Sequence record: OQ417966.1
Reading direction: 5' to 3' (one strand)
Source: Mycobacterium phage prophiT36-1
DNA length: 64,000 bases
Each line of letters starts with the position of its first letter. Positions within the stretch are counted from its first letter, which is position 1. A program made the translations under genes and the position numbers. The notes beneath the pieces are model-generated. The model was not told the origin of the DNA, searched no databases, and was given only the letters and a program-made list of their open reading frames with translations. Below, piece after piece: positions 24,603-42,116 of the stretch.

Positions 24603-24832
24603 TGTCGGCCAAGTCCTTCGCGCAGCTCGTCAAGTATCCGCTGTTCTACATCGCGCTGGCCGGGGTCTCGTTCCGGATTGGTTGGTGTGCAGCCCATTAC
24701 GTCAGTGACCGCATGGACAACTTTGATCCAGATATCGGTAGGGGTTATGTTCTGTTGAGACGTTTGTCTTGGAGGTATGTCGATGAGCGATCGAGCGTAT
24801 CGGGTTGTTTACGGAGCTTACGCTGGGCTTGA
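24602..24832 (+). CDS. Small membrane protein ORF, 76 aa, that crosses the left boundary of the duplicated block. The first 46 codons are phage-side and the last 30 codons are inside the repeat.
   Basis: ATGA overlap with the stop of the 23904-24602 gene. One TM-like segment LFYIALAGVSFRIGW. The ORF continues across the 24740/24741 junction and into the first recombinase gene in another frame, so its C-terminus is probably an insertion artefact. Confidence 0.25.
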   Translation: MSAKSFAQLVKYPLFYIALAGVSFRIGWCAAHYVSDRMDNFDPDIGRGYVLLRRLSWRYVDERSSVSGCLRSLRWA

Positions 24833-26171
24833 CGCAGCCGAGGTGCAGTTTCCCGGTGTGACCCGATGCCTTCCATCTGTGGAGCAGCAGTTCGGGGATG
24901 GGTTTCCTGTGCTTGTTGATGCCGATGGTTTGCCGGTGGAGGAATCGTTGGCGTTTCTAGTATCGCGGGTAGGGGCATCGACCTCAACATTGGCGCAGTA
25001 CGCACGCGCTTTGATGGGGTTTGTCGAATTCCTGGGCTACCGGGGGGACGCCCGGCTTTTAGATGCGGCGCCCCGTGACTTGACGGCGTACCGGTTGTAC
25101 CGAACGAGGACGGGGGAATCTCCTGTCTCGGAATACTCGTTCCGGGTGGAAGCCTCGGCACTGCGACAGTTCTATGCGTGGGCAGTTGAGACTGGCCTCC
25201 TGGAGCGCTCTCCTGTCAAGCAGTTGTCACGCAATGGCTGGGACAACCTTTCTACCAACAGAATGCGTCATTCTAAGATTCGTCATGTAGATAAGTTTCT
25301 GTACGAAGCACTGCTGCGAGCGGCTGCTCAGGGCAGCGTGGATGCGGGCGTTCGGAGTGCTTCGCTACGGAATGTGGCTGCAATCAAGACATTTGCAACG
25401 ACTGGGCTTCGCCTTGGTGAGCTTGCGAGCCTTCTGACCTTCGATATTGATCATGCTGTCAGATTGCGCCGGGCGCTATCTGTGGAGATGGAGTCGATCA
25501 CAAAGTACCGAGTCAACCGCAATGCGTTGATTCCGTTCTATGCCACAGACGCGATCCGGCGGTATCGAAAACTTGAGCGCCCTAACGTGGTGGTTCGGCA
25601 TCAGCGCGCGTTGGGCAAACGTCTGGACAGTCTTTTTGTGATCAGCGATTTCAATGAATCCACTCGCCGTGTCTCCGGCCGGTGGCGAGGTCGACGGCAC
25701 CAGTATCTGCTGCATTTGGTGCCTGTTGAGCTGCGGTTGAAGGCTGTTTCAGTTAATTCAAATGGCAGCGTGGAGCCGCTGTGTTTGTTCTTGAGCGATA
25801 GCCGAGGGCAAGGGATGACGAGGTCTGGGTGGGAAGGAGTGTTCTCCGAGGTCAGTGATCAGATGATGCGCCAGGATCCGACGGATGGGCGGATCCGGAA
25901 GGTCACCCCGCATGATCTGCGGCATACGTTCGCTATCAATTATTTGAGGGCGGCCCATGGGGAACGGGCCAAAGTGCTCCAGGAGACACCGTTCAAGGAT
26001 GGGCCGCCGCTGCGTGATCCGTTGATCGATCTTCAAGAGCTGTTGGGACATGCGACCGCAGCACAAACGATGCGTTACTTGAGGTATGTCGAGGACATCG
26101 ACCGACTCATTGCGTCGGCTGTTCCCGGCCAGGGTGATGCGGGAGGGGGCGAGCATGCCCCGCAGAAATGA
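24777..26171 (+). CDS. Tyrosine recombinase, first member of the trio, 464 aa.
   Basis: SD ggagg 6 nt upstream. C-terminal catalytic boxes: LRLGELASLLTFDID (Arg I), PHDLRHTFAINYL (H-x-x-R), LLGHATAAQTMRYLRY (His and Tyr nucleophile). Confidence 0.75.
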   Translation: MSMSDRAYRVVYGAYAGLDAAEVQFPGVTRCLPSVEQQFGDGFPVLVDADGLPVEESLAFLVSRVGASTSTLAQYARALMGFVEFLGYRGDARLLDAAPRDLTAYRLYRTRTGESPVSEYSFRVEASALRQFYAWAVETGLLERSPVKQLSRNGWDNLSTNRMRHSKIRHVDKFLYEALLRAAAQGSVDAGVRSASLRNVAAIKTFATTGLRLGELASLLTFDIDHAVRLRRALSVEMESITKYRVNRNALIPFYATDAIRRYRKLERPNVVVRHQRALGKRLDSLFVISDFNESTRRVSGRWRGRRHQYLLHLVPVELRLKAVSVNSNGSVEPLCLFLSDSRGQGMTRSGWEGVFSEVSDQMMRQDPTDGRIRKVTPHDLRHTFAINYLRAAHGERAKVLQETPFKDGPPLRDPLIDLQELLGHATAAQTMRYLRYVEDIDRLIASAVPGQGDAGGGEHAPQK

Positions 26172-28059
26172 ACGCAAGGACCTCGACCGTGAGGGTGTTG
26201 ACGTTGCGCGAGGCGCCGCCGAATCTCGGCCAGCTGCGGTGGGAGTTCGCAGGCTCGCTCAACCGGGCAGGCCCGGCATGCAGGGGACCGCACAGATAGA
26301 TCCCAGCTCATACCAATGCCGCCGTCTGGCGGCCCAGCTGGCCGACCAGTGGGTTGAGATGGCGGCTGGGCGTTCGCGCTCGGTGATCGCCGTTCACCGT
26401 CAGGCGCTTGATAATTTCCTGAAATATGTTGATAAGTTGCATGATTCAGATGTGAGCCTGGATCATGATCCCGCGGTAGTAATGGCGGTGTTTGATGCAT
26501 GGGCCAAGGATCTGATTGCACTGTATGACGAAAATTCGATCATGCCGTACCGGATGTCGAACATCGTCCAGACACAGATGGCTGGTGCTGTTGTCGATGG
26601 GGTGATCACCGACGAGGTGTTGGCAGCATATGCGCGTGGGCCCGCGGTAGTCCCGAAACCGCGAGCACAACCGCTCGACGAGTTCAGTAAAGACGAACTC
26701 AAGCGCATGGTGCTGGCTGCGCGCGCACATATACGAGCAGCTCGAAAGATCAGGGAATGGGCCACGAAAACTATCCGTGCGTACGAATCTGGGAAATTGA
26801 CCCACGCGGATCAACGCTGTCTGGGCCACATGCTGCAGATGGCTACCCGAGGCGAGCGCATCGCCATACAACAGCCGTGGGATGCACATCCGGAGTCGCT
26901 GCGCGATCTCTTCCCCGACGAGGCCTGGTCGCTTTATCAGGCAACAGGCCTGAACGAGACGAAGAATTCAGTTGCCTTGTCCTGCTACCGCGCGACCCTC
27001 GCCCGGCCAATCGACCTGGTTCCTTATCGGGTATTGCTTATGGCAGGCACAGGCGTTGCAGTGGAAGAGATCTCGGCATTGACTGTGTCAGATATCGAAT
27101 GGCTCGAAGATGGCGTCAGAGTGCAGATGACCAAATCGCGAGCCCGGCGGTCAAAAGGACGGTACTTCCCAGGATCCGCTGAGCGCGGTGGCTGGGATGT
27201 TCCCGCGCTTTTGCAGTCGCTGCTGGATTTCACTGAACCGGTCCGCGCGATCGCAGGTGCACAGTTCCAGGACTGCCTGTGGCTATCGTTCAAGACAAAA
27301 AGACAGTCCCACAGTGAATCTGGTTGCGCCCCGGCTCCCGCAGACTTCGGAACCGCCAACTTGGCATCCTGGATCGATTCGGTCAAGACAGTCCACGACA
27401 TGGGCGATATTTCCACCCCACATGACATGCGGCGGATACGTAAGACAAAGGTCGCCCAGCGTGCAATTGATCTGCGTGGCGCAATGGCCGACATCGCTGG
27501 CGATGACCACACCAGCAGAGTCTTCTTCCAGCATTACGGACAGACAACATCGCTGAAAGTGTATTCAGGATCGGTAATTTCGGGCTTCCAAACCTCACTC
27601 GCTGAGGCAGTAAAGACAGGCTTCACTGCCTTCCTGGACAGACGTGCTGCGGTACCGGCGTCGATCTTGACCGAGGCGCTGCCCATCGAGCCCGCTCAGG
27701 CACACAGTCTGCGCTCCGGTGCTCACGACATGGGAGTTGTCGACTGCCAGAACCCGTTTAACTCGCCCTTTACCAAACAAGGCAAGTTATGTGGGTCCGC
27801 GCCCTTATCATGTCTGATGTGCGAGAACGCGGTTGTCTTCACCGACCATCTCCCCAACATCGTGGCGCTTATACAAGCAATGGACAACGCGAAGCGGTCA
27901 CTGGCACCCGATGACTGGATTGCCACCTGGGGGCGGCAATACGCTGCGGCGCAGGCATTGATGTCATCGGTGCCCGAACGAGCTCGCGCCGCCGCGGCGC
28001 GCAAGGCCGCTGCCGCGGTAACAGATCTGCCGGCCTGGTTGGGGCCGGGTAACCAGTGA
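26155..28059 (+). CDS. Tyrosine recombinase, second member of the trio, about 634 aa from the ATG at 26155; the ORF is open from 26086.
   Basis: Strong SD gggaggggg 5 nt upstream of ATG 26155, overlapping the end of gene A by 17 nt. Boxes LTVSDIEWL (Arg I), MTKSRARRSKGRYF (Lys), TPHDMRRIRKT (H-x-x-R), VFFQHYGQT (Tyr). Confidence 0.7.
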   Translation: MPRRNERKDLDREGVDVARGAAESRPAAVGVRRLAQPGRPGMQGTAQIDPSSYQCRRLAAQLADQWVEMAAGRSRSVIAVHRQALDNFLKYVDKLHDSDVSLDHDPAVVMAVFDAWAKDLIALYDENSIMPYRMSNIVQTQMAGAVVDGVITDEVLAAYARGPAVVPKPRAQPLDEFSKDELKRMVLAARAHIRAARKIREWATKTIRAYESGKLTHADQRCLGHMLQMATRGERIAIQQPWDAHPESLRDLFPDEAWSLYQATGLNETKNSVALSCYRATLARPIDLVPYRVLLMAGTGVAVEEISALTVSDIEWLEDGVRVQMTKSRARRSKGRYFPGSAERGGWDVPALLQSLLDFTEPVRAIAGAQFQDCLWLSFKTKRQSHSESGCAPAPADFGTANLASWIDSVKTVHDMGDISTPHDMRRIRKTKVAQRAIDLRGAMADIAGDDHTSRVFFQHYGQTTSLKVYSGSVISGFQTSLAEAVKTGFTAFLDRRAAVPASILTEALPIEPAQAHSLRSGAHDMGVVDCQNPFNSPFTKQGKLCGSAPLSCLMCENAVVFTDHLPNIVALIQAMDNAKRSLAPDDWIATWGRQYAAAQALMSSVPERARAAAARKAAAAVTDLPAWLGPGNQ

Positions 28060-30542
28060 AGACAGCACAGCTCGGTTCCCCAGGGCCAGTCGCGGCACCG
28101 GTTTCGTCCGACATCTTCGCCGACACCGAAGATGTATTCCTGTCCCGCCCGGACAGGATCGCTGGCGCCCCCGCATGCCTGTTTAGCGAGCAGGTATGGG
28201 ATGCGACGGGTGTGCTGCCTCGGCGCGCTAACATCGGCCGCCATCAATTGCGCATAATCTTTCCGCAGCATCCGGCGTGGTCGCTGCGGTCTCGTGAGAT
28301 TGCGATGACCTTGCTTAACAGCACCGACCCACGGTTGCTCGCACGATCGGTCTCCTTCGGCAGCCGTACGTTCTCCCTGGCGCATGTGCGATCGCGCTGC
28401 GAGACATACAAAACCGTGGCGGCGTGGCAGACAGCTCAAGGCTTACCTGACGACATTTCGGCCTGGGGCGCCCGCGACTGGGTAGCGATGGTCGAAGCCG
28501 AAATCGCCAGGGGCGTCAAAAACGGGACCGTGCGCAATCTCATCTGCGCTATCCGCGACCTTGTCTTCCTTGGGCCCATCTTGACTGGCGGCGGCATCGC
28601 ATCAGACCCATGGAACGGCAAGGCAACGAAACTCATCGCCAAAGGCGCCGTGGCAGGACGAACTGAAGTAATCGCCCCGGCACGTTGGATACCGCTGATA
28701 GGTGCGTGCTGGACATACATCGACACCTTCGCCGAAGACATCCTGAGTCTGCGTGTGAGCCATCAGTGTGACCTGCGCCCCGGCATGCCGGAATGGAGGC
28801 GCCGCTCGGAAGTAAGCGATGACGAGCTGCTCACCGCATACCTGGAGTCCTCCGGTGCCGTTATTCCCGCTAAGACTCGTGACGGTGGCCCGGACCCGAG
28901 CTGGTGGCGCCTATCCAAATTGGTAACCGCCGACCGGTCTTCGGCAATCTTCAAAGAAGACAGGGCAGCGGGGCGCCGCCGCAGAGAGATGGTGTATCAG
29001 GCGCTCGCCAACAACGTGGCCCGTTATGTAGCCCTCACTGCCAGTGAATTCGAAAATCTTTTGGCACAAGGGATTTCCAAGAAACTCGCGGGCAGCGATG
29101 CCGAGACCATAGTACGGATCCAGGGCGCCGACGAGATGCTCGATGCGTGGATTGACGCTGCCAGCAACCGAGTCGCAGTCACGTCCACAGAACTATGCAG
29201 CTCGCCGGGAAAGATCGCTGAAGACGACATCAATTGGGCATTGATGGAACGGATCGTGTTCCGTTCAGAAGGCGTGACTGGCCTGCTCGGGAAGGGCTGG
29301 GCAACCTCTGTCCGCCGCAGGCGCAAACTACTTAAACTCGCCCGCTCAGGCCGAGTTTTCGCATCCGCCAGTGGTGTCGGTGTGATGGGCGTACCGCGCG
29401 ACTGCACTGGCTTCACCCTAGTCGGCGCACCAGGCAGGCAGATCCCTTGGCGGGAATCAATGTCGGACTATGAGGCGCGGTGCGAACTGCGCGCCTTGCG
29501 GGCATCCTGCTATGTCTTCATCGCCGCGATAACAATGATGCGCGACAGTGAGATTCAAGATATGAAGCGAGGCTGTATACGTACCGATTACGGCGTCGCT
29601 TCTGTGAAATCACACCTTTACAAGGGGCGTTCGGGCAAGACGGTCGCACACTGGTGGATCATCGATGAAGTAGCCACAGCAATCAGAGTGCTGGAACGAC
29701 TCAGCTGTCATCCAGAGTATCTGTTCGCACGATTCGTCGACGGAGAACTCGAGAATCCTGAACCCGGTATCAGGTCAGGACTCGAGATTGCGTTTCTGCT
29801 CGATCATTTGGCGGCCACCGGCGCCCGAAGCGGGATCGCACCGGTGCCCGAGGGGCCCGTGATTTCCGCGCGAGCTCTGCGCCGTACCACTGCATCCATC
29901 AGCCGCGAACTGGGAGGCAACGAGCTTGCGGTAAGTCATCAACTCAAACACGCCATCAACTACGGCTACTCGAACGTTACCAGCGCCTATATGGCACCAG
30001 ACCCGGCATGGGCAGACCTGCTCAACACCAACAGGTCCGAGGACAACCTTGAGCACATGGTGACCGTCGTGCAGCAGTCCGCGCGCACCAGCGCCTCCTT
30101 GGCCGGTCGCGGCGGTGAGCGGCTGACCCAACAGATTGCCCAAGCGGTCGAACAGAGCGCAGGCCCTGGATACCCCGGTTCGGTGCTCTCCGATGAGGAG
30201 CTAGCCATCCTGCTGAGAAAAATCGCGCCGCAGATCCGTTTCGGACCTGCCAACGCGTGTCTGTACGACGAAGAGAACGCGCTATGTCGGCGCGATGCCA
30301 CCACCGAAATCCAGGGGCCGCTTCTGGGACTGTGTCAACCGTCGCGCTGCGCAAACTCGGTGATCGGTACCGAACACATGCCTGTGTGGGTCACCGAGTT
30401 GCAGACATTGCAGAAGACCATCGCCAGCCCCCGCGTGAGTCCGCCTCGACGACAGGCACTTTCAGAACGAATCACCGACGTACAGCACGTACTGAGCCAG
30501 CTCCAAACACGACCGCAAGCGGGCGACCATGGGCAGCCGTGA
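28056..30542 (+). CDS. Tyrosine recombinase-like protein, third member of the trio, 828 aa.
   Basis: GTGA start/stop overlap with gene B. C-terminal segment TMMRDSE (Arg I), KSHLYKGRSGKTV (Lys), ARALRRTTAS (box II Arg), VSHQLKHAINYGYS (His and Tyr). The large N-terminal extension is of unknown function. Confidence 0.6.
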   Translation: MKTAQLGSPGPVAAPVSSDIFADTEDVFLSRPDRIAGAPACLFSEQVWDATGVLPRRANIGRHQLRIIFPQHPAWSLRSREIAMTLLNSTDPRLLARSVSFGSRTFSLAHVRSRCETYKTVAAWQTAQGLPDDISAWGARDWVAMVEAEIARGVKNGTVRNLICAIRDLVFLGPILTGGGIASDPWNGKATKLIAKGAVAGRTEVIAPARWIPLIGACWTYIDTFAEDILSLRVSHQCDLRPGMPEWRRRSEVSDDELLTAYLESSGAVIPAKTRDGGPDPSWWRLSKLVTADRSSAIFKEDRAAGRRRREMVYQALANNVARYVALTASEFENLLAQGISKKLAGSDAETIVRIQGADEMLDAWIDAASNRVAVTSTELCSSPGKIAEDDINWALMERIVFRSEGVTGLLGKGWATSVRRRRKLLKLARSGRVFASASGVGVMGVPRDCTGFTLVGAPGRQIPWRESMSDYEARCELRALRASCYVFIAAITMMRDSEIQDMKRGCIRTDYGVASVKSHLYKGRSGKTVAHWWIIDEVATAIRVLERLSCHPEYLFARFVDGELENPEPGIRSGLEIAFLLDHLAATGARSGIAPVPEGPVISARALRRTTASISRELGGNELAVSHQLKHAINYGYSNVTSAYMAPDPAWADLLNTNRSEDNLEHMVTVVQQSARTSASLAGRGGERLTQQIAQAVEQSAGPGYPGSVLSDEELAILLRKIAPQIRFGPANACLYDEENALCRRDATTEIQGPLLGLCQPSRCANSVIGTEHMPVWVTELQTLQKTIASPRVSPPRRQALSERITDVQHVLSQLQTRPQAGDHGQP

Positions 30543-30927
30543 GGAAATCCGTGCCGCGATGGAACGCCTCCTAAACGGCGACGCCCAGCACACCGACGGA
30601 CGCCTAACCAAAACCAACCTTGCGGTAGAAGCCGGCGTGGGTCGGGCGACCCTCTACCGCCAGCACGACCTGATGGCCGAATGGGCGCGCCGCGTCACCG
30701 AATCAGACATCGCCCCACCCGCCGCGTCTGCCGCGGCCACGATCGCACACCTGACCCGACAGCTGGCCGACGAACGCTCCCGCCGCCGCGAATCCGACCG
30801 CATCGCCAACGGCCTGGCCTTCGTGGTAGCCGAGCTCTACCGCGCGCTAGAGGCTCGGACTCCCCCAAATTCTTCACGCGGCACGATCATCCCGATAAAC
30901 GCCAAAACGCGAAGGCGCGCAGACTAG
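30529..30927 (+). CDS. Small HTH protein, 132 aa, TetR-like, translationally coupled to the recombinase trio.
   Basis: 14-nt overlap with the end of gene C. N-terminal KTNLAVEAGVGRATLYRQH matches the TetR-type HTH signature (AG-V-x-x-x-T-L-Y). Confidence 0.5.
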   Translation: MGSREEIRAAMERLLNGDAQHTDGRLTKTNLAVEAGVGRATLYRQHDLMAEWARRVTESDIAPPAASAAATIAHLTRQLADERSRRRESDRIANGLAFVVAELYRALEARTPPNSSRGTIIPINAKTRRRAD

Positions 30928-30988
30928 CCTGAGCCCATTTCACATACGAGCGAATGAGTTCATTGCTGATCGAAGCAGTACGGGATTC

Positions 30989-33900
30989 GTGCGTGGGAGC
31001 GGTGCCCGCCATGAATGGACAGCGCCGGCATCTGATCGGGACCGTTCGAGCGCGACTTACGTGGGGAGAGGTTACGTGGCCGACAGCCAGGCACTTCGGA
31101 AAGTTCGGTATGCAGACAAGTTCCGGGGCTATCAGGGCCAGGCTATTGCTATGGCCCGGAAGTATCGGCGCAGCTTCCACGACGAGGACGGCGCGCAGGG
31201 GCTTGATGCCGCATTGGTTTACCACCCCACGGGTACGGGCAAGACAGCCGTCATTGCCGGTCTAACGCACGCGGCACACGAAATCGGCAATGTCCTGGTG
31301 CTGACCACACGCGAAGTCATACGTGATCAACTGGTGCGCGAGCTCAGCGGTGGCCTCTTCATTGACGAGAACAAGTTCGCGCTGCCCATGCGCCACAAAC
31401 TTTCTAAGGTCTGCTTCGCGGTGGCCGAGTCCCGCCAATTACTCGGCACAGCATTAGCGTTGCATGCGGCGACGCGAAAACGCATCCCCGACCAGGTGGT
31501 CCGGGAGTTCAGTCAGCGGCAGTTCGAGCGGCTTGCACCCGAGCCCGACATCGACATCGTGAGCCACTTGCATGAACAGAACTCTGTTCTCATTCTCACC
31601 GTCCAAATGCTGGCCCGCTTGCACCGAGGCCGCACCGGGCAGTCACCGATATACGACGTCTTGCGTCAACACGTAGACCTGGTCGTCTTCGACGAAGGAC
31701 ACTACGAACCTGCACCGCGCTACAGCGAGGCAGTGCGGGATCTAGGGCGCCCTACTGTGCTGTTGACCGCTACCCCTTTCCGTAACGACCTGAAAGCTTT
31801 TCGCATCACACCCGAGCATGTCGACATTTATCGATTCACCCAGGCGGTGCAGCAGCAGCACATCAGAGAAGTCCAGATCGTGCAGCGCACACCGACACGT
31901 GACCCGGACAAGTTCTGCGCCGATGTTCTCGATTTCTGCACATCGGTGTGGGGACCCGATCCAGGGCAGTGGACCCGCCGGATCATTATTCGCTGCGACG
32001 ATGTCGAGTGCGTAACACGCCTTGGCGAAGCATTCATAGCCCATGGCTTCAAGGACCGAGTCATCGGCATCCATGACCGCTACACCAACCCTGGGCAAGG
32101 CGACGGGCAGCCATGGCAATACCGCACAGTCCCAGCGCCGTCGGAAACCCAAGCACTAGTATGGATTCACCAGCATAAACTGCTAGAGGGCGTCGATGAT
32201 CATCGCTTCCAGATTCTGGCTTTCTTCAACCCACCGACCAATGTGCGCGCCATTGTCCAACAAATCGGCCGAGTCGTAAGGACCAAGCCTGGTGGCCAAG
32301 ACGCAGGCAACGCATACGTTTTGGACTATTTCGCCGGGCGCATCGCTAGATACTGGAGTCTATATCGCGGGTATGACGCTGCAGCCACGCCCGAGGCAGT
32401 CACTATGACCGCATCACGGTTCTACCTCACGAGATTCACCGCTGCACTGCCGCAGTTCGATTACATCGACCAAAAGTTTCGCCAGCGGCTCGATCTGTTC
32501 GACCACGACCAGCAAGCCCAGCTCACTGACACCATCGCCGACGAGATCTTCTTCAAGCGCACTGTGGCACTTAGACAGATACCAAACACCCTGACGATCC
32601 AGGACGTTGTCCCGCTTCTCGAGATCGCCCTTAAGGAAGGCGATTACGAGTACCAGCGATTCGATGTGTCGAAGATATGCCCCAATACCGCTCTATTCCT
32701 GTGTTCCCGGGTGAACAATGTCGACTTTCTCAACACTTACTTCTTCCCCGAGCCGCACCTAGAAGCCCGGCTCGTGATGCTCTTCCCAGAACACGCACTG
32801 CTGGCCTCGACAAGTACAGCAGGCGCATCGGTCAAAGATGGACTAGGGATTCTTGCGCGGTACGATCCGACCCGACTTGAGCGACTCCTATTGCCGGGCA
32901 ACGATAACCGGGGACGCATCACCAGCGTTTCCTCTAAGAACATGAACCTCAGTAGCCGGGCAGTGCGCGGTCGGGTCGTCTACGCAGCATCCATGGCTGA
33001 CATCCCGGCAGCCCTCGATGAGCACGGCCATGTCGTCTCCACGGTCACCGGCTACAACGGCTCGGCTCCACAGGTCATAGACCACCTCGAATACCAAGTA
33101 AGTGTGTTGGCCGATGAACTTGCCAGATCAGGGGCGACCACCGAAGGGCCTGGCACTGGTGCAACCCTTGTGCGCCGTTACGTGGGCATCGCAAGCGGTC
33201 ACGTGACTGAGTACCTTCCACCACTGCGCATCAAGGCATTCCGTACTTGGGTGCAATCACTGGCGAACCAGATGGATGACCCCGCACGCTATGACCGAGT
33301 CTTTAGTCGCTACGCCGAGCTCGCGGTAGGCGAGACGGTCTCGGGCGCAGCCCAGAACCTGCTATTGGACTTCACCGAGCTCACCGAGCTCTACCGGCAC
33401 CGCCTCACCGGCCAATGCGTTATCAGCGATGATGTGTGCGCCGACAGATTAGGCGATCCATACGGTACACCCGAACAGCCTGCGGCACAGTTCATCATGA
33501 CGATAAATGACACCCCATACACAATAGCCGCCACCTTCAACACCTCGTCCAAGCGGTACCGCATCGAGTGCCCGGCGCTCGACTATGACTTCATCCCGAT
33601 CGATGACCGCGACGGCTCGTTGATACGTGCGATAAACCAGATGCAGGCTTTCACGGTGGTCCCAGAGGACCGAGATCGCATCTACGCGCACGGGAGCTTC
33701 TATGCGCCGTCCCTGAAGTTCGGGCCAGACCGATTTAACCCCAACGGTTTCCCTATCGGACACCTGCTTTACCCCTCGCAACAGTTCAAGTCTAAAGAGA
33801 CAGAAAAAGGGGATAAAGTCATTGGCGGCAACCGTTACCAGACACACAGCCTGTTCGGCCTGATCGACAGCTGGAAGTCAGGTTTCGATACCGCAGAACT

Positions 33901-34474
33901 CGATCTCGACCCTCACTGGGTGCGGCGCAGTGGCTATGTCCCTGAATCGCTCTCGTTTTCACCCACTGCGCTCATCGTGGACGACATGGGTTGCGAATGC
34001 GCCGATTTTATTATTGCCGACACGCTCGGGCGGCGGGTTGTGCTGATTCATGGCAAGGCATCCGAGACGTGGCGCCCGTATTCGGCCTCAGCTCTGCAGG
34101 AGATCTGTGCGCAGGCTCAAAAGAACACAGCGCTGTTCTCCTCGCGTGAGCCCCGCATGCCGCCAAACATCACCTTGTGGGACAAGGCACACAACTTCAA
34201 CAACCTGTCGGTAGCTAAACGAATCCGGAAGCCGAACAGAGATACGGCGGAGAGGATTTGGCACGACCAACTGGCGCCGCTGTTAGCCAACCCACTCACT
34301 TCGCGCGAGATCTGGCTGGTGCTTGGCAACATGCTGTCGGCCTCAGAGATCATCGCGCAACTAAAGACTGACCGGCCTGCCGCCGAAGTCCTACAGCTAA
34401 CGCAACTACTGCACACCACAATGGAAGCCGCACGCGGCGTAGCAGCAAATCTGCGAATCTTCTGTTCGCCATAG
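30989..34474 (+). CDS. SF2 (ResIII/DEAD-like) helicase fused to a large C-terminal region with a putative PD-(D/E)xK-like nuclease motif, 1161 aa. Candidate single-protein defence helicase-nuclease.
   Basis: Helicase motifs in order: FRGYQGQAI (Q-like), HPTGTGKTAV (Walker A/I), LVVFDEGHY (II, DEGH), LLTATPF (III), QQIGRVVRT (VI). C-terminal segment IVDDMGCECADFIIADTLGRRVVLIHGKAS resembles D ... E-x-D ... K of restriction-endonuclease folds. GC is lower than in the phage module. The start codon is uncertain (GTG 30989 or the in-frame ATG at residue 55). Confidence 0.65.
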   Translation: MRGSGARHEWTAPASDRDRSSATYVGRGYVADSQALRKVRYADKFRGYQGQAIAMARKYRRSFHDEDGAQGLDAALVYHPTGTGKTAVIAGLTHAAHEIGNVLVLTTREVIRDQLVRELSGGLFIDENKFALPMRHKLSKVCFAVAESRQLLGTALALHAATRKRIPDQVVREFSQRQFERLAPEPDIDIVSHLHEQNSVLILTVQMLARLHRGRTGQSPIYDVLRQHVDLVVFDEGHYEPAPRYSEAVRDLGRPTVLLTATPFRNDLKAFRITPEHVDIYRFTQAVQQQHIREVQIVQRTPTRDPDKFCADVLDFCTSVWGPDPGQWTRRIIIRCDDVECVTRLGEAFIAHGFKDRVIGIHDRYTNPGQGDGQPWQYRTVPAPSETQALVWIHQHKLLEGVDDHRFQILAFFNPPTNVRAIVQQIGRVVRTKPGGQDAGNAYVLDYFAGRIARYWSLYRGYDAAATPEAVTMTASRFYLTRFTAALPQFDYIDQKFRQRLDLFDHDQQAQLTDTIADEIFFKRTVALRQIPNTLTIQDVVPLLEIALKEGDYEYQRFDVSKICPNTALFLCSRVNNVDFLNTYFFPEPHLEARLVMLFPEHALLASTSTAGASVKDGLGILARYDPTRLERLLLPGNDNRGRITSVSSKNMNLSSRAVRGRVVYAASMADIPAALDEHGHVVSTVTGYNGSAPQVIDHLEYQVSVLADELARSGATTEGPGTGATLVRRYVGIASGHVTEYLPPLRIKAFRTWVQSLANQMDDPARYDRVFSRYAELAVGETVSGAAQNLLLDFTELTELYRHRLTGQCVISDDVCADRLGDPYGTPEQPAAQFIMTINDTPYTIAATFNTSSKRYRIECPALDYDFIPIDDRDGSLIRAINQMQAFTVVPEDRDRIYAHGSFYAPSLKFGPDRFNPNGFPIGHLLYPSQQFKSKETEKGDKVIGGNRYQTHSLFGLIDSWKSGFDTAELDLDPHWVRRSGYVPESLSFSPTALIVDDMGCECADFIIADTLGRRVVLIHGKASETWRPYSASALQEICAQAQKNTALFSSREPRMPPNITLWDKAHNFNNLSVAKRIRKPNRDTAERIWHDQLAPLLANPLTSREIWLVLGNMLSASEIIAQLKTDRPAAEVLQLTQLLHTTMEAARGVAANLRIFCSP

Positions 34475-34510
34475 TTGTTGCTACAGAGTATAAATCAAGA
34501 TCTGCCGGAC

Positions 34511-34768
34511 TCAGTGGTCGGCGAAGAAGTCGCCCGCTGAAGCATCCAACGCCTCCGCAATGTCGACGAGGCGTTCATACAGAAGTCCCCGGCGGCCGTG
34601 CTCGACGTCAATGAGTACGTTGCGAGTCACACCCGACGCCAACGCGAGCGCCTCTTGAGTCAGGCCCCGCGCAAGACGCAACGCGCGGATGCGGGCGCCG
34701 ACCGCCTGCCGAGTATGTTCCCAGGCAATCACACGCTCGGGATCGTTCTGCTGAGGGCGGGTAGGCAT
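34511..34768 (-). CDS. XRE-family HTH transcriptional regulator, 85 aa.
   Basis: Classic HTH_3 signature LRLARGLTQEALALASGVTRNVLIDVEHGRR. Convergent with the helicase gene and divergent from the 246-aa gene. Confidence 0.75.
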   Translation of the reverse strand: MPTRPQQNDPERVIAWEHTRQAVGARIRALRLARGLTQEALALASGVTRNVLIDVEHGRRGLLYERLVDIAEALDASAGDFFADH

Positions 34769-34778
34769 TAACCCAGTT

Positions 34779-35519
34779 ATGGAGCGCCCGTACCAAAAGT
34801 CTGCCCTACTAGTAGTACATTGCTGTGTTGTGTTTGAATTCGATCCCGAAGATGCGTCTGTAGAGACTGTTTCGGCACTGGCCCTGGATGCGATGGACGA
34901 GCTGCGCAGGAAGTTGATCGAATGCCTTCTGGTGTTGCAAACGTTGTCTGATGAAGCTGATCTGAATTTCGTCGATCTAATTAGCGATCTGCAGGCCGTT
35001 CACCGAGGTACTCAAGAGGCGTATCGAGCAGCTAGTCTGGTGCATCAGGGTGCTCAGCTAGACGGCCGATGGGGTAACAGTTTGTCCAAGCCCAAAGCCG
35101 TTTTCGCTCGCCATAATTCAGCAGTGCGTCGCGGCGCCAAAAAGGTAATCCCGATGTCGGCACCATCTGACCTGGTGGAGCAGAGTTTGTATCACTTGCC
35201 CAAGCCCGACCGCGTTCAAGCAACCGTGGGTGACCGGCCCCAATGCGCGGGCACCGTTCGTTCCACAGGTGAAAGCTGTGCCAGCTCCGCCATGTATCTG
35301 GGTTCGGGAGCATTTGCAGCGCACTGTTATTCGCACGCTACTCCCGCTGAACGTGAGCGGTACAGGGTCTATCACAAGGAGATTGATGCGCGACGTGCGC
35401 GCACATATGACGATTTGCGCGAGCGTCAGTGGGCGGTCGGTCGCGAGATTCTCGCTCACTGGATCTCTAGTCGCGAACATGGCATCGAGTGGCTTGAGAA
35501 AGCTATCGCTGAAGTTTAG
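34779..35519 (+). CDS. Hypothetical protein, up to 246 aa, with a Cys/His cluster suggesting a zinc ribbon (C-x10-C ... H-C-x2-H).
   Basis: The ORF is divergent from the XRE gene; the true start is probably an internal ATG near 34893. Segment PQCAGTVRSTGESCASSAMYLGSGAFAAHCYSH. No known family recognised. Confidence 0.4.
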   Translation: MERPYQKSALLVVHCCVVFEFDPEDASVETVSALALDAMDELRRKLIECLLVLQTLSDEADLNFVDLISDLQAVHRGTQEAYRAASLVHQGAQLDGRWGNSLSKPKAVFARHNSAVRRGAKKVIPMSAPSDLVEQSLYHLPKPDRVQATVGDRPQCAGTVRSTGESCASSAMYLGSGAFAAHCYSHATPAERERYRVYHKEIDARRARTYDDLRERQWAVGREILAHWISSREHGIEWLEKAIAEV

Positions 35520-35876
35520 AAGCGCAGGGCGTTTTACTGCTCCTTCACGAGCGCACGGGCAGGAGTCACAACGATTCCGTCAGCCAATCGGACCGCGAGT
35601 GGGCTACGCCACGTAGAGCGAAGATCATTTACACAGATTGGGCATCTAAGTCTTTGCCCTGCGATGAAATGCTCGTTGTTTCGGACGACGCGCACCCATG
35701 ACGGAAGCTGCCGACAGGATGCCTACCCTTGGCCGAACGAAACATTGAGGCAGTCCTGCAAGCGCAGCGAGGACGGTCGGCGGGCCTCCAGTGTGCGGGC
35801 AGGACATCACGGTGATCTTGCGGGCTGTTGGGCTGGCCCGCTCTGCCTCGACGGCCCGTAAGGGCACGTAATTCGT

Positions 35877-37649
35877 TTGCTCTTTACGGGCGGTCGCGTA
35901 GCTTTGTTTTGTGTTCCTTTCCATCCGGGGCCATTGGCTTGCCGCTTTACGTATCTTGGACCGTTGGTGAAGCTGCGGCGCCTGACGCGGCGCGAAACAA
36001 ACGAGAGCCTGCGCCGGCGATGGGCATTTTTTCAGGCGCATCTTCGCGACGAATTTGTCCACTCCGCACAAGGCGAGCAGGTACTCAAGTACGCCTTTGA
36101 GTTGCGCCGGGTTAATCGGCCAGATACTGATGTCGAACATTTCAAGGCGGTGGTCGCTGCCGAGCGTGACGTGTGCGAGGCGCGGGCACGAGCAGCTCTA
36201 GACCGGGTGAACCCGGCCAGTGTTCTGGTGCTGGGGGTGATTCTTGAGCGCGCCGGTCAATCGCGTTACCGGCAGTTCCTGGGCGCGTTTGGGATGTCGC
36301 GGCTCGTATGGTTGATCGGAGCGGCCGGCGGGGGCACTGGACCTCTCGGTGAAGGTATTCGAGAGTTCTTCGATTGTGCAGTGCCCTGGTTAGCTGTTAC
36401 CGCATTGGAAAGTGAGCTGTGGTGGCAGCCCACGGGACGTGACCCTGATGATGCGACCGTGACAGCGGTTGGTTCGCGCATGGTCAATGCGCATACCCGC
36501 CTGTGGTGGGGCTCGTTGATGGTCGCGCGCTCACTGCTGCGGCAGGCACGCCGACCCGAGTTACCCGAAACGATCGTCCCGGAGCTGGTGCAGTATCTCG
36601 TCGCAGCCAACGGGGCCAACCTGCGCGAGCGCGCAGAATTCATTCTGCCGCCGCTGAGCACTCAGGCCCGCACATTTGCGACCGCATGTTCAGTGCGGGC
36701 CGGTCAGTACGCGGGCCGTCGGCTCGATGACCTGGTCAATACCCGCATTGACGGTGAGAGCTCGGGTGGGCAACCGTGCGAGACTTACCCGTTCATTCTC
36801 GTAGGTGAGCAGCTCGTGCCGGCCACGATCTATGTCTTGCGCGGCAGCCTGCACGTTATGTTCGTGGACTACCTGCGTAGAACGCTCAAAGACGAAGGCT
36901 CCCAAATCTTTGAGCGCACGTGCGGGGACCTGATCCGTGAGCTGCTGGGCACGGACGGTGAAATGCTCACCGACGTCAATATTCGGATATCCCATGCGGA
37001 ACGAAAACATAAGGGCCAAACTGATTTCGCGGCACTTTGGCAATCAGTCCTGCTTATCGGGGAGGTTAAGGCTGCGTTGGAGCCGGTCTTGCCACGTAAA
37101 TCTGGGGCGTCCTATGACCGTGACGTGGGTAAAGCATTCACGCAGCTCAATGAGCGATTGGCCGCCGCAGCTGCCGGAAGCTCGGTGTCGGCGGCCGGTC
37201 GGATGGTTAAGGCCGAAGAATATTCACAAGTGCGAGGACTTGGGGTGGTGATGCACGATTTCGGCGGCGAGATCTGGCGGCATAGAGCACATGGCGGGAA
37301 GTTCAAAGACTCTGCAAGACTGCCGATTATTACGGTCCAGGACCTCGCAGTGATCGCTCACACATTGAGCGGGATGGATGAGTTTCTCCGGTACCTGGAC
37401 TTCCGTCAGCAGCTCCTGGGGGCAGGTGTGCGGGCTATGGAGGAGTTCGACATTCTCGCCGGTTTCCTGGCGCGAGGCCCGGGCCCGGGTCAGCAGCTTA
37501 CTCGTGCGCAGAGGCGTGCGACACGAAATGGCAAAGGGCACATCAGGCTTGCGGCCCGCGCTGTTCCCTTGTCTTTGCAGCATGTCTTCGAGCCGCCGGT
37601 GGATAAAGCTGGCTGGCGTCAGATCGTCGCCGGAATGCCCAGGGTCTGA
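35877..37649 (+). CDS. Hypothetical protein, up to 590 aa, with a PD-(D/E)xK-type nuclease motif; candidate effector or partner of the downstream OLD-family gene.
   Basis: Segment ERTCGDLIRELLG ... GQTDFAALWQSVLLIGEVKAALEP fits E ... D-x12-E-V-K of the restriction-endonuclease fold. Same strand and adjacent to the 601-aa gene. The start is uncertain (the N-terminal ~60 aa look non-protein-like). Confidence 0.45.
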   Translation: MLFTGGRVALFCVPFHPGPLACRFTYLGPLVKLRRLTRRETNESLRRRWAFFQAHLRDEFVHSAQGEQVLKYAFELRRVNRPDTDVEHFKAVVAAERDVCEARARAALDRVNPASVLVLGVILERAGQSRYRQFLGAFGMSRLVWLIGAAGGGTGPLGEGIREFFDCAVPWLAVTALESELWWQPTGRDPDDATVTAVGSRMVNAHTRLWWGSLMVARSLLRQARRPELPETIVPELVQYLVAANGANLRERAEFILPPLSTQARTFATACSVRAGQYAGRRLDDLVNTRIDGESSGGQPCETYPFILVGEQLVPATIYVLRGSLHVMFVDYLRRTLKDEGSQIFERTCGDLIRELLGTDGEMLTDVNIRISHAERKHKGQTDFAALWQSVLLIGEVKAALEPVLPRKSGASYDRDVGKAFTQLNERLAAAAAGSSVSAAGRMVKAEEYSQVRGLGVVMHDFGGEIWRHRAHGGKFKDSARLPIITVQDLAVIAHTLSGMDEFLRYLDFRQQLLGAGVRAMEEFDILAGFLARGPGPGQQLTRAQRRATRNGKGHIRLAARAVPLSLQHVFEPPVDKAGWRQIVAGMPRV

Positions 37650-38019
37650 ACTCGCCGCAGGACCCGGGAACGGCCGACCTCCGCTAAGCCTGCCTGCCCA
37701 GTGCATCGGTGGGTCGGTAGTGGTTTGGGACTGTGTCTGATTGCCAGCCATTCGGATTGGGCGAGCTATGCCTGACAGTTCGCACCTGACTCTCGCTGTC
37801 AGTTGTCGCCCACATACCGCTCCAACGCTATCCAGACTGGTCCTGGCACTTCCGAAGTAGCGACGTACTGTGATCTTTCAGTTCAGAACAGTGTTTACGC
37901 GGGGGTCCTTCGCGGCAGCTCCTCGCAAAGTCGGCGGCCGGTAGATATTGTGTCGCACTGCGACAACAATCAGATTCAGATCCCACCGTCTACCTGTCGC
38001 GTCTAACTGAGGGGGTTCC

Positions 38020-39825
38020 ATGACGGCTGAGCCAGCACCGCTCGGCGAAGGCATCGCCGAGCACTTCGGGTTTGCTATTGCGGGGGTCAGAGTCGGTGAT
38101 GGTGAGATGCTCGACTTGCCTGGAGCGGGGAGCGTCATAGCTGTTGTGGGGGCGAACAATGCCGGAAAGTCCACGTTCCTACGTCAATTGCAGGAGATCT
38201 TGGCGTGGCACGGACTCACCAAGGAAATGACGCCCCGCGTTGTTACGGAAATCGCGGAGCCATGGGTTGGTTCGGTCGAAGATTTCACCGCGTGGCTGAT
38301 CGCTAACGCCCAGATTGACGAGCACACGGGTCTAAGGAATGTGACCCGCAACGGCACTCACCCGCAAATACCGTTGCAGAACACTGCCTCGATCCGGAAC
38401 CAACCCACACCTGGCGCTGTCCTGCACTGGTTTGTCGGCAATCATCAGCCAGGCGACCGGCAACACGCCTGTTCGATGTCAGGTAGAGCTGACCCGGCAG
38501 GATTACCCCCACAGACACCCATGCAGGCCCTGTTCGCAGACATACCGAAACGCAAAAAGGTGATTGACCTCGCTGCCCGCTTGTTCGGCGTTCAACTGCA
38601 CTTCGATACCGTCAGTGCGTCTATCGGCTTCCGTATCGGCAAACCCGACTTGCCGGCGCCAAACGTTAACGAGATAGACGCTCAGTATGCTCGCGCGGTT
38701 GGAAAACTGCCACCTCTGATCGAACAAGGTGACGGCATCAAGTCAGCGCTCGGCCTCTTGATCCCTCTGATTACCAACGCGAACCCGCTGTCGATCGTGG
38801 ACGAACCCGAGGCCTTCCTCCACCCACCGCAGGCAGAGCTTCTCGGCTTCGAGATAGGGAAAATTGCTCGGGACAACAGATCCCAGGTTGTCCTCGCGAC
38901 TCACGACAAGAATCTTCTGCAGGGGATCGCGAGGAGTGGAGCCCCCGTATCGATTATTCACTTACAGCGAGCTGGAGACACCACGACGGCTATTCGTCTC
39001 GGGGCCGAAGATATCGAAGACCTCTGGAAAGATGTGACCCTTCGGTATGGCAATGCGCTCGACAGCCTATTTCATCGCGCGGTCGTCATCACCGAAGGTG
39101 ATCGGGATTCGCACTTTTTTCGTGCGGCGATTGATGCGGTTCATGAGGGCATACACCCGCAGCCTCCCGCACACAACCTGATGTTTCTAAGCAGCTATGG
39201 CAAGCAGAACATGGCGCACATCGTCGAACGTCTTCGAAAGCTGGGCGTACGGGTCGTCACATCTCCCGACCTCGACATTCTCAACAACGAAACGCTGCTG
39301 CGCCGGCTCGTTGTTGCCCACGGCGGCGACTGGAACTCGATCATGCAGCTTTACAAGCAGGCAACGAACGAATTCCTCGGTCCTGCAAAGCCTCCCACGA
39401 TCGACGACGTACGCACAAAGATTGATGACGCCCTGAGTAAATCGACCGATGGCGTCTTGGACAGGCCTTTAGCTCAGGCGCTAGCTGTGGCCGTTGCGCT
39501 CCCAACAACAAACTGGGGCAAGCTAAAAGAGGCCGGCACCCGGGCATTTAATGCAGACAAGAAATCGGCGACTGAACTTCTGGATGCTCTGGACGCGATC
39601 GGCATCGTTGCCGTCAAGGTCGGGGAGCTGGAAAAGTTTGTAACAAACGCTAACCCGCCAAAAGGCCCCGAGTTCCTCCCTGTCGCCTTCGCTGCGGGAG
39701 CGCACATCGCGCCGGAGGCAGGGGAACATGCAAATCGGCTATTGATAGCAGCCGGAATCACGGTTCCAGAGACGCGCCCTGTTCACGATCAATGCTTGCC
39801 CGCATGCGCCCAGACCTCAGGCTGA
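38020..39825 (+). CDS. OLD-family nuclease (overcoming lysogenization defect; P2 Old-like, class 1 architecture): N-terminal ABC ATPase plus C-terminal Toprim domain, 601 aa.
   Basis: Strong SD gaggggg. Walker A VVGANNAGKSTFL. OLD/ABC Walker B signature LSIVDEPEAFLHPPQ. H-loop VVLATHD. Toprim glutamate AVVITEGDRDSHFF. Toprim DxD VVTSPDLDILN. This order and spacing are diagnostic of OLD-family ATPase-Toprim proteins. Confidence 0.8.
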   Translation: MTAEPAPLGEGIAEHFGFAIAGVRVGDGEMLDLPGAGSVIAVVGANNAGKSTFLRQLQEILAWHGLTKEMTPRVVTEIAEPWVGSVEDFTAWLIANAQIDEHTGLRNVTRNGTHPQIPLQNTASIRNQPTPGAVLHWFVGNHQPGDRQHACSMSGRADPAGLPPQTPMQALFADIPKRKKVIDLAARLFGVQLHFDTVSASIGFRIGKPDLPAPNVNEIDAQYARAVGKLPPLIEQGDGIKSALGLLIPLITNANPLSIVDEPEAFLHPPQAELLGFEIGKIARDNRSQVVLATHDKNLLQGIARSGAPVSIIHLQRAGDTTTAIRLGAEDIEDLWKDVTLRYGNALDSLFHRAVVITEGDRDSHFFRAAIDAVHEGIHPQPPAHNLMFLSSYGKQNMAHIVERLRKLGVRVVTSPDLDILNNETLLRRLVVAHGGDWNSIMQLYKQATNEFLGPAKPPTIDDVRTKIDDALSKSTDGVLDRPLAQALAVAVALPTTNWGKLKEAGTRAFNADKKSATELLDALDAIGIVAVKVGELEKFVTNANPPKGPEFLPVAFAAGAHIAPEAGEHANRLLIAAGITVPETRPVHDQCLPACAQTSG

Positions 39826-40244
39826 TACGACCGCGACGCCGGCTACTGACCTTGCGGACGTGCTCAATACAAGTGCTCAGTTGCGCGCGGAGCTAATCTG
39901 CAGTTGGGTCAGGTATGTACTCGATTGTCGCTTATGGTGGTTGGCGAGTGGTATTGAATCGTGGGGGACAGGGTTATCTTTAGGCATGTACTTGTCGGTG
40001 TATATGGCTGGTGCTAACGGATTTCAGCGCTGTGAATGTTTTATTCGGCCGAGCATCTCAGCCTTCGGGGCAAGCGATCAGTTTCTCCACGGCTGCTGGT
40101 CGAACCTCGACATGGATTCGTCTGAGGCCTGCAACAGGTGGCACTAACCCGACCTCTATCCATGCGGATACTTAATCGACATCCGCGAGAGCGGCACCCT
40201 GTTCGCGCGACCCCAACTGGCGTTCCTACCCAGCTACGGGCATA

Positions 40245-41039
40245 TTGCTGCCAAATCTGTTGGTAAACACCAGTTTACGGCTTTCGCCGTATACACCAAT
40301 TCTCGTGCGAAGAGACGCATCTGAAGCGCTCCCAGCCTCTCCGGTCGCAGGAAAGAAAATACTCTGGCCGATACGTGGTTCGATTATGCCCATGCATGGT
40401 TTCCCTTTGGCCCCAGGCTCTTTGGGCTACAAGCGCTGCCACCTCACCGTCGGGGGAGAGTTTCGACTGTCACAGACTGATTGTTGCGATGCCGGCCAAG
40501 ACGAGTTGTTCGGCGTCCTCGACGACCGATCAGCTGTGGTGTTCATCCACCCAAACGCGCTTCCCGCTGCGCCACCTGACGGCGTACCGCCGTTCGCGGT
40601 CGACTTCCTGCTGGACACCACTCGCGCGGCCTACCTGTTAGTGCATAACGGCATTCGTGCGCGGTTTCCGAATACCCATTTCATACTCAGCCACGGCGGG
40701 GGCTTCGTGCCTTACGCCTCCCACCGGATGGCATTCTCGCTCGAATTGGAAACCGGTAACCCCGCTGAGGAGATGCTGGCATTGTTGTCGAGCTTCTATT
40801 TCGACACGGCCGTGACGTCCAGCCCTGCATCCTTGCCGAGCCTGCTGGCCTTCGCCGACTCCGGCCATGTCGTCTACGGATCGGATTGGCCCTTCCTACC
40901 TGCCGACGCCGCTAGGAGGTTCACCGGTAATCTGGGTCGTTACCTTGGATTAGATGATCGGGCCCGCGCCGCAATCGATCGCGGCAACGCCGAAAAGATC
41001 TGGGGAACACCGCCGCCAACCCGTGACGAGGTCGGCTAG
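40245..41039 (+). pseudogene. Amidohydrolase-2 (PF04909-like metal-dependent hydrolase) gene fragment, 5'-truncated; it lacks the N-terminal HxH metal-binding motif.
   Basis: Contains family signatures VVFIHPN, FILSHGGG and VVYGSDWPF only in the last ~165 aa of the ORF. The first ~100 aa of the ORF have no HxH and look non-homologous. Preceded by a 420-bp lower-GC non-coding stretch. Confidence 0.5.
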
Positions 41040-41612
41040 TCGGCGGGCAGGCGCTGTGGCCGACAAGGATCGGGCCAACAAGCAACCGCCAACATCAGGG
41101 CGCTCTCAGAGTATCGCGATCGCGCCATCCACCTGTACAACGCCCAGGGTCTTGGCGCGCGTTCGTGCTGGTCGTAGCTTCCGTCGGGATGGATGAGAGG
41201 TCAGGCGCACCCCAAGCCGATCAGCACTCGATTGCCGTTGTTCGCCGGTATTCTGGGGTAGGTTGCGGCGTCCGTATTCCGTCTGGCTGATTCATGAAAA
41301 CCCGCTTGCTTGCATCAGGTTTTGAAGATTGAGACGAACCGCCGAGGGACCGAGCAGAGGCTGCTGAACTACTAGGTGCTGCCCCCCGGTGAATTCGCCC
41401 GTCGACCGGTTGACTGTCAGCGCCCGGTGCGCCTTCCCCGAGCAATAGACATCCAGAGCAGCGGAGCCGAGTTAGCGCTTGTAGTGGCAAGCAATTACCC
41501 CTTCAGAATCGAACTCTGAGCGAGCTATGTTTGCGAGCCAGCACCGAACGCCGCTCGACCGCGATCGGCACATAGTGCCCGGCCATCGGCCGGGCTGCGA
41601 GATGATTGATCT

Positions 41613-41963: not shown

Positions 41964-42116
41964 CAAATACCGTATGACGACGACCGTCCCACGAGCTCCG
42001 GAAGGGCACTCCCCTCCCGCCGCGAGGCTGCGAGCAGCCGCACCATACATCGCGGGTGTTGACCAAACCAGTTGGTGAACTCGAGCTAGTAGCAACCCAG
42101 GTCCCGACAGACGATC

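Follow-up and report, generated by a model that had tools for sequence, protein, structure and literature searches.

A large helicase gene in a mycobacterial prophage raises the question of what its long C-terminal half is, and whether the whole protein acts in phage defence. The gene lies in a 64,000-nucleotide stretch of the record of Mycobacterium phage prophiT36-1 (OQ417966.1), hereafter called the window, where it is carried by a GInt-like element inserted in the prophage. The original prediction, made from the letters of the window, described a 1161-residue superfamily 2 (SF2) helicase whose second half had no assignable motif other than a nuclease-like one and whose domain order and size did not obviously match any system that could be named. 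As judged by profile comparisons, this second half is a complete PDC-S71 module fused to the helicase. The proposed defence function is based on genomic context and on analogy, which suggest that we are probably dealing with a plausible single-gene helicase-nuclease defence candidate rather than a housekeeping enzyme.

The helicase motor and the PDC-S71 module

The open reading frame (ORF) at 30989..34474 on the plus strand exists exactly as predicted, with a GTG start and 1161 codons that translate without an internal stop, and its actual start probably lies further downstream. We preferred GTG 31076, the likely start of an 1132-residue protein, because a strong Shine-Dalgarno sequence, GGGGAGAGG, is found 4 nucleotides before it, the database gene call P0001 (identical, 1132 residues) begins there, and the N termini of homologues coincide with it. 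Residue numbers below are those of the 1132-residue protein; adding 29 converts them to the numbering of the 1161-codon frame. The gene is present twice in the window because a perfect direct repeat covers the locus (Table 1).

Motif and profile analyses showed that the N-terminal ~470 residues form an SF2 NTPase motor that is intact and belongs to the ResIII, XPB-RadD or restriction enzyme R-subunit type. The five motifs of the original prediction (Q, I, II, III and VI) were all located and motif V was added, so that motifs I (GxGKT), II (DExH), III, V and VI (QxxGRxxR) are found in two RecA-like domains. An alignment of 94 family sequences, which share 27-57% identity, shows no variation in the core residues of these motifs. 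In agreement, Pfam scans matched ResIII (E 6.5e-13) and SWI2_SNF2 (PF18766; E 6e-08), and a search of all PDB sequences with the family profile retrieved helicase cores only, all at profile positions up to ~410. They include XPB/Rad25 (E 5.7e-10), XPBII, RadD, UvrB, the type I restriction R subunit (HsdR), and the type ISP enzymes LlaGI and LlaBIII. The C-terminal 650 residues had no PDB sequence match, either in this profile search or when the nuclease domain was searched alone.

Beyond the helicase, Pfam and NCBIfam scans of the protein gave no match. The PADLOC scan yielded one significant match, PDC-S71 (PDLC05077; E 2e-25, residues 960-1132), and no further PADLOC model matched at E<=0.01. 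This direct match aligns profile positions 421-589, the last 169 of 589, and because the model aligns over these positions only, coverage-filtered annotation may miss the gene. A phmmer search of 1.84 billion cluster representatives with the last 254 residues returned 517 proteins, all with the domain at the C terminus, which fell into a group of ~1000-1150 residues and a shorter one. We scanned nine proteins of 513-591 residues and found the PDC-S71 profile to match over most of the length in eight and over the C-terminal part only in the ninth; none of the nine had a Pfam domain.

Comparing the family alignment with the PDC-S71-type proteins by hhalign gave a probability of 100% and an E value of 5e-147 over 526 aligned columns, with residues 547-1132 of our protein mapping onto the entire PDC-S71-type protein. 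Because the alignment covers the whole of that protein, the long half left uncharacterised by the original prediction represents, by profile comparison, the PDC-S71 module in full, attached to a helicase. Both share a series of motifs, including SEKG, CDDMGxExADF, IHAKA and QAxKN; the protein studied here adds an N-terminal SF2 helicase of ~470 residues and a linker of ~75 residues, both absent from the 589-position model. The central part of the module has weak structural likeness to TBP-like and RdgC-like alpha/beta domains (DUF4468, RdgC, AdoMetDC, CENP-N/Chl4 and the RnlA NRD). PDC-S71 was not found mentioned in the literature searched.

We looked up the loci of five PDC-S71-type proteins individually. 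The helicase part lies directly upstream in three of them, once as a separate overlapping ORF and twice broken across frames by frameshifts or in pseudogenes; of the remaining two, one is truly solo and one is a fragment at a contig edge. The pairing of helicase and module therefore seems to be the dominant form. Our protein differs from stand-alone PDC-S71 proteins (~510-590 residues, no helicase), a form known from the solo member (L090), which has no helicase remnant within 6 kb and is surrounded by an AAA_15/21 gene, a KAP NTPase, GmrSD-HNH and BrxE/A/B/C. Several short proteins of this type are C-terminal pieces of split or frameshifted genes, so that part of the PDC-S71 calls in databases may represent fragments of helicase fusions. 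Split or frameshifted full-length genes were seen at L089 (4604-7629), L091 (4366-7587) and L092 (4775-7650).

Table 1. Features of the helicase gene, its carrier element and the surrounding prophage, in window positions.
Feature	Position	Strand	Basis or remark
Probable helicase-nuclease gene, 1132 residues	31076..34474, stop included	+	ORF listing, Shine-Dalgarno, P0001, homologue N termini
29-codon 5' extension of the maximal ORF, probably untranslated	30989..31075	+	Outside all homologue alignments; database call begins at 31076
SF2 motor, RecA1 and RecA2, residues 1 to ~470, motifs Q/I/II/III/V/VI	31076..32485	+	Pfam, PDB profile search, motif invariance
Q-like motif FRGYQGQA	31121-31144	+	Motif location
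Motif I PTGTGKT	31226-31246	+	Motif location
Motif II DEGH	31691-31702	+	Motif location
Motif III TATP	31766-31777	+	Motif location
Motif V HQHKLLEGVDD (added to the five first noted)	32168-32200	+	Motif location
Motif VI QQIGRVVR	32258-32281	+	Motif location
PDC-S71-homologous module, residues 547-1132: central alpha/beta module, then nuclease domain	32714..34471	+	hhalign
C-terminal PD-(D/E)xK-fold nuclease domain, residues 879-1132	33710..34471	+	Structural matches, conserved site
Invariant E910-K911	33800-33814	+	Family alignment
Putative catalytic segment DDMGCECADFIIADTLGRRVVLIHGK: D969-D970 ... E974-x-A-D977 ... H992-G-K994	33980..34057	+	Invariance in family
Invariant Q1013	34112-34114	+	Family alignment
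Second gene copy, 100% identical	53844..57242 (maximal ORF from 53757)	+	Perfect repeat, period 22768; copies compared directly
GInt-like element copy 1, 22,768 bp	24741..47508	+	Repeat mapping; copy 2 from 47509 past the window end
ginABCD-like module: three tyrosine-recombinase-like genes (464, 657 and 828 residues) and a 132-residue ORF	24777..30927	+	Pfam, layout
Convergent XRE-family helix-turn-helix gene, local neighbour	34511..34768	-	HTH_3 E 6.8e-12
590-residue ORF without detectable family, before the OLD gene	35877-37649	+	Family scans
OLD-family ATPase-Toprim nuclease	38020-39825	+	PADLOC 'Old' E 3.3e-19; Pfam AAA_21, AAA_15, OLD-like_TOPRIM
534-residue fusion of sigma-70 region 4 helix-turn-helix and TnsA-like endonuclease N-terminal domain	42117-43721	+	Unusual fusion
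395-residue protein with terminal Ntox33 toxin domain, polymorphic-toxin type	44118-45305	+	Domain match, E 3.1e-28
Siphovirus structural module, complete-looking, Cluster MabL prophage	1-24740		Portal, major head, 1863-residue tape measure, minor tail proteins

The nuclease domain and its putative active site

In the structure model, the last ~250 residues adopt the fold of PD-(D/E)xK nucleases, and their invariant E-D-HxK-Q constellation would fall, by secondary-structure register, on the canonical catalytic positions. Structural comparisons of this domain identified the cleavage domains of the type IIS enzymes FokI and BspD6I as its best matches. The values obtained were 7.4 for FokI, 7.3 for CdiA-CT EC869, 7.2 for N.BspD6I, 6.4 for HamA, 6.1 for R.BspD6I, SduA and SfsA, 5.9 for Upx, 5.8 for the Yersinia CdiA-CT, 5.6 for BstEII and 5.5 for AF1548, followed by LlaBIII, Hna (5.3), NucS, Can2, McrC and NucC. 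A Foldseek search of PDB with the 693-residue model returned nothing at E<0.001, the top match being the DNase toxin CdiA-CT EC869 (E 0.049). The C-terminal half did not turn out to be a known non-nuclease accessory domain.

In the structure model, D977 stands directly before beta-2, H992-x-K994 lies inside beta-3, and Q1013 is in the next helix. By secondary-structure register, D977 and H992/K994 would occupy the canonical 'PD' and '(D/E)xK' positions, with a His replacing the acidic residue of the latter. The D ... ECADF ... HGK segment singled out by the original prediction is present, and E974, D977, H992 and K994 are invariant both in the 94-sequence alignment and among 62 independent relatives, which we translated from genome contigs and which share 22-54% identity in the nuclease-motif region. 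In the latter set the conservation extends to D970, also part of the DD...E.D...K pattern proposed at the outset, and nine polar or charged residues are 100% conserved altogether (E910, K911, D970, E974, D977, H992, K994, Q1013 and R1049). The helicase motifs and the D..E.AD..H.K motif are invariant across >150 homologues, at 22-57% identity overall.

Given the His in place of an acidic residue, the domain might have a nuclease fold and yet be catalytically dead, serving as a DNA-binding or regulatory part of the helicase. We regard this as improbable. The 100% conservation of the nine site residues over very deep divergence is typical of active sites, and E974 and D970 can supply acidic ligands. 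Moreover, PD-(D/E)xK enzymes with a Ser, Gln or other residue at the acidic position are active, as in CdiA-CT EC869 and the Mrr-type enzymes.

Distribution of the family and the case for defence

A pattern and tblastn scan of 185,579 species genomes, one genome per species, found 127 relatives (~0.07%). They belong to at least 12 phyla, counting Actinomycetota, Alpha-, Beta-, Gamma- and Deltaproteobacteria, Bacteroidota, Planctomycetota, Chloroflexota, Bacillota, Acidobacteriota, Saccharibacteria, Atribacterota and two Asgard archaea; at 50% identity, the family comprises about 500 cluster representatives across bacteria and Asgard archaea. Among plasmid records, 17 of 72,556 carry a member, mostly megaplasmids, with the sole annotation 'DEAD/DEAH box helicase family protein'. 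No member was found among 2.9 million IMG/VR contigs or the 50,697 deposited phage genomes of INPHARED, and on these zero matches we rejected a phage origin of the gene.

This distribution bears on a possible housekeeping or stress-induced role in DNA repair, in the manner of Hef/FANCM, AdnAB or RadD. The helicase core does resemble XPB, RadD, UvrB and Hef, and a few loci adjoin core genes. However, the family is rare and very patchy, its neighbourhoods are variable, it occurs on plasmids and mobile elements, and frameshifted copies exist. In the window, the GC content is 0.58-0.59 here and 0.59 for the element, as opposed to 0.65 in the flanking prophage (1-24740). A repair function is largely refuted by the distribution, and we consider it extremely improbable. 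Homologues are therefore not the core-genome housekeeping helicases that would have undermined the original prediction; they are rare, patchy, and often found in defence islands or mobile elements.

We clustered the four neighbours on each side of the family gene at 85 loci by BLAST and found no universal partner gene. The largest clusters were HsdR (8), HsdM (7), HsdS (6), DISARM-type SNF2 (6) and PLD (4). Pfam and PADLOC scans of the 106 immediately adjacent ORFs revealed no Pfam family with more than 5 members. Recurrent PADLOC matches among these ORFs were to type I restriction-modification (R-M), DrmD, ZacC, MADS mad2/mad3, BrxH and PbeA, next to mobile-element genes (IstB, DUF3987, HTH_17) and some housekeeping genes. 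In a Jatrophihabitans locus, the family gene sits between Wadjet JetC/JetD with GmrSD and a type I R-M system; in a Planctomycetales locus, it is within a DISARM-like operon with DrmA/B-like, SNF2, MmeI-type methylase and PLD proteins. Other loci adjoin Tle1-like or patatin genes. By neighbour counts, the pattern is that of an accessory gene that is self-contained, moves horizontally and is biased toward defence islands.

At about five distinct loci (L002/L020, L035, L039, L056 and L077), the family gene is on the same strand inside a DISARM-like operon that holds a fused DrmA/B-like protein, an SNF2 protein, an MmeI-type methylase and a PLD protein, and at L027 and L047 it directly follows hsdM-hsdS. 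The family member may act as an accessory to the DISARM-like or type I R-M system at such loci.

The convergent XRE regulator that was taken as a hallmark of defence islands is a real HTH_3 protein, but it is not a conserved companion of the family, as only 1 of 78 other loci has an XRE-type neighbour. That sole case (L064, 9898-10137, minus strand), in a metagenome-assembled genome of the Sphingomonadales, is also convergent and is strikingly close to the XRE protein of the window (jackhmmer E 7e-35), and the helicase gene may have moved jointly with its XRE neighbour.

Taking these data together, we favour with moderate confidence the view that the gene encodes a self-contained, single-polypeptide defence enzyme that targets nucleic acids and is cargo on a mobile GInt-like element. 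In the mechanism that we propose, the motor would use ATP to load onto DNA and move along it, and the central alpha/beta module would bind DNA or sense a trigger, holding the nuclease in check. The nuclease would then nick or cut invading phage or plasmid DNA in a metal-dependent manner, and double-strand breaks may need dimerisation, by analogy with the FokI and BspD6I-type domains. Because no methyltransferase is attached, discrimination between self and non-self would have to come from DNA structure (such as free ends or replication intermediates), from DNA modification or from a phage factor. In this respect the enzyme would resemble Hna, Hachiman, Shedu and DruE more than it does classical R-M.

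Several observations weigh against this view. The catalytic triad is non-canonical, with a His where Asp or Glu is expected, and the placement of D977, H992 and K994 on catalytic positions depends on the secondary-structure register of a model. PDC-S71, the only family-level match, is itself a computational 'phage defence candidate' only. Defence-gene neighbours, known from neighbour counts only, are recurrent rather than universal, and some loci adjoin housekeeping genes, such as L004, where the family gene borders a block of unknown genes, beside glnA and tatABC.

A precedent in layout is Hna of Sinorhizobium meliloti (PDB 9yhn), which has the same domain order, an order for which the original prediction saw no obvious match. 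Hna is an 845-residue protein in which a DinG/XPD-like SF2 core with a reduced Arch domain leads straight into the PD-(D/E)xK domain; it is a 3'-5' exonuclease on single-stranded DNA, inhibited by ATP and activated by phage single-stranded DNA-binding protein (PMC13381803). The protein studied here might likewise act by abortive infection, remaining auto-inhibited until a phage factor or abnormal DNA triggers degradation of both host and phage DNA and the cell is killed or arrested. No sequence feature tells abortive infection from direct immunity. Nevertheless, an Hna-like mode is unlikely in our view. The 1132-residue protein has an XPB/RadD/HsdR-like rather than a DinG/XPD-like core and an extra ~450-residue insertion between motor and nuclease, with a central module that Hna lacks, and Hna is neither among the best 60 of 103 PDB sequence matches of the family profile nor among the sequence matches of the nuclease domain. 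We did not assign the protein to Hna, given the different core and size, the central module and the lack of a sequence-level match among these.

Restriction enzymes offer another comparison. Type III Res subunits, like the protein, are polypeptides of ~1000 residues that begin with a ResIII-type motor and carry a PD-(D/E)xK domain at the C terminus; the large central module and the HxK active site are particular to our protein, and the Mod methyltransferase partner is absent. N6_Mtase was found in only 2 of the 106 adjacent ORFs of homologues, with no Mod partner at most loci, and Pfam, PADLOC and other family scans found no methyltransferase in the 22.8-kb element. The motor and C-terminal nuclease thus agree with a type III Res subunit, and the expected adjacent Mod gene does not accompany them. 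It is conceivable, though distinctly unlikely, that the protein is an ATP-dependent restriction enzyme that is either modification dependent (type IV-like) or type III-like without Mod. In such an enzyme the central module would read a modified base or a sequence, the motor would translocate on double-stranded DNA and the FokI-like domain would cut.

Other helicase-nuclease systems were rejected as well. HmaA of the Hma system (Halomonas meridiana), which combines SNF2_N (PF00176), Helicase_C (PF00271) and NOV_C (PF13020), likewise joins a helicase to a C-terminal PD-(D/E)xK nuclease and confers phage defence alone (PMC11232893). The protein had no match to PF00176, PF00271 or PF13020 at E<=0.01, and the PADLOC scan returned no Hma model. 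Hachiman differs in consisting of two genes, HamA (DUF1837 nuclease) and HamB (a helicase of a different SF2 subfamily), and no Hachiman Pfam or PADLOC model matched the protein. Nhi has an N-terminal nuclease followed by a superfamily 1 helicase, whereas our protein has the reverse domain order and an SF2 motor. DruE of Druantia was rejected on domain content, and Upx, unlike our protein, lacks a helicase. The original statement that no nameable system fits therefore stands for Hna, HmaA, Hachiman, Nhi and type III Res, but not for the C-terminal 585 residues, which correspond to PDC-S71.

The design principle of a helicase joined to a nuclease is already known from a well-populated class, and the core module had been flagged by PADLOC; the structurally new parts are the non-canonical HxK site and the 330-residue central module. 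If active, the enzyme would add a validated family to the single-gene helicase-nuclease immune class, would give a function and a mechanism to the orphan candidate PDC-S71, and would show that this candidate is mostly found as the C-terminal portion of a protein that starts with a helicase.

The GInt-like carrier and its prophage setting

GInt elements have ginABCD at their 5' end and cargo directly after ginD, with a weak Phage_integrase match in GinC, and were described from Proteobacteria (Pseudomonas) (PMC5385486). The element of the window has the same layout: its 5' end consists of three consecutive tyrosine-recombinase-like genes and a small fourth ORF, and the cargo, of which the helicase-nuclease gene is the first, comes directly after them. 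The Phage_integrase match is strong for the first recombinase-like gene (E 9.4e-12) and weak for the second and third (E 0.0099 and 0.0045). The likeness lies in the layout, and the present element differs from the known GInts in being in Mycobacterium, inside a prophage and in the form of a tandem dimer. If GinA-D homology is confirmed, the carrier would extend GInt-like elements to Mycobacterium, and these recombinase-trio islands to the Actinomycetota, with one seen inserting into a prophage.

Positions 24741-41232 are identical to 47509-64000, with zero mismatches over the 16,492 bases compared, giving a tandem period of 22,768 bp. The left ~10 kb of the element were found again at a different chromosomal site in L087, a 20,720-bp contig of another sequencing run (Logan DRR317582), with 1 mismatch in 10,069 bases. 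Because this near-identical copy sits at another site, the element, like GInts, can be found at different sites, which indicates recent mobility. We compared the element ends (window 24700-24760 and 47460-47520; L087 3600-3710; L086 13730-13750). The left end, TTATGTTCTGTTGAGAC, follows a G-run at all three left junctions (prophage, chromosome and tandem junction), and the right end, ...GTCTCAACATGTCTGTAGAGACAGCTTGACGTCCGTACATAACGCG, holds imperfect inverted-repeat matches to it. The copy in L087 lies beside Rv3660c-like and T2SSE/CpaF-like genes, with a 228-residue T2SSE gene call directly abutting the element.

The position of the gene on a recently mobile element might mean that it serves the element itself, in replication, resolution or transfer of the GInt circle or in the exclusion of competitors, and gives the host no protection. 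It comes first after ginABCD, 148 nucleotides from ginD and with no predicted terminator between them, and transcription of gin operons is reported to run on into the cargo (PMC5385486). On the other hand, tyrosine-recombinase neighbours do not recur across the 85 other loci, most family members are outside recombinase-trio elements, and the GInt paper does not mention a helicase (PMC5385486). We find such a role very improbable, and retain a defence enzyme carried as cargo as the preferred reading.

The insertion interrupts gp81, a small gene that separates the tail module of the prophage from its lysis module. Window positions 20000-24744 are 100.0% identical to the M. abscessus prophage prophiT48-1, in which the uninterrupted insertion site is present and runs on into gp81, gp82 and lysin A/B. 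The window agrees with what has been published on prophiT36-1, a prophage of M. abscessus subsp. massiliense T36. The published report describes a tandem 22.5-kb 'peculiar large insertion' with three integrase-like genes, 'a DNA helicase (86 and 106)', an AAA ATPase and an RpoD/TnsA-like gene, and notes that the tandem is present once more at another place in the T36 genome (PMC9934374). The insertion is thus already published; the report leaves the element unclassified and calls the gene studied here only a 'DNA helicase' (PMC9934374).

The host belongs to M. abscessus subsp. massiliense, and in this species personalised phage therapy is limited by unexplained differences in phage susceptibility from strain to strain. 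We tentatively suggest, as a possibility rather than an expectation, that a restriction-type SF2 translocase, a previously unseen central sensor and a PD-(D/E)xK domain with an E-D-His-Lys site make up a new stand-alone immune enzyme. This enzyme would be present in four copies in M. abscessus by way of the tandem GInt-like element, with one pair in the prophage, and could shape susceptibility to therapeutic phages. The gene is a reasonable target for experiment on account of its HxK nuclease branch, its central module, its GInt-in-prophage carrier and its clinical host.

The other cargo of the element comprises the XRE gene, two unknown ORFs, an OLD-family nuclease, an amidohydrolase, the TnsA-like/sigma-70 region 4 protein and the Ntox33 toxin. 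The OLD gene and the 590-residue ORF upstream of it may constitute a second defence module on the element.

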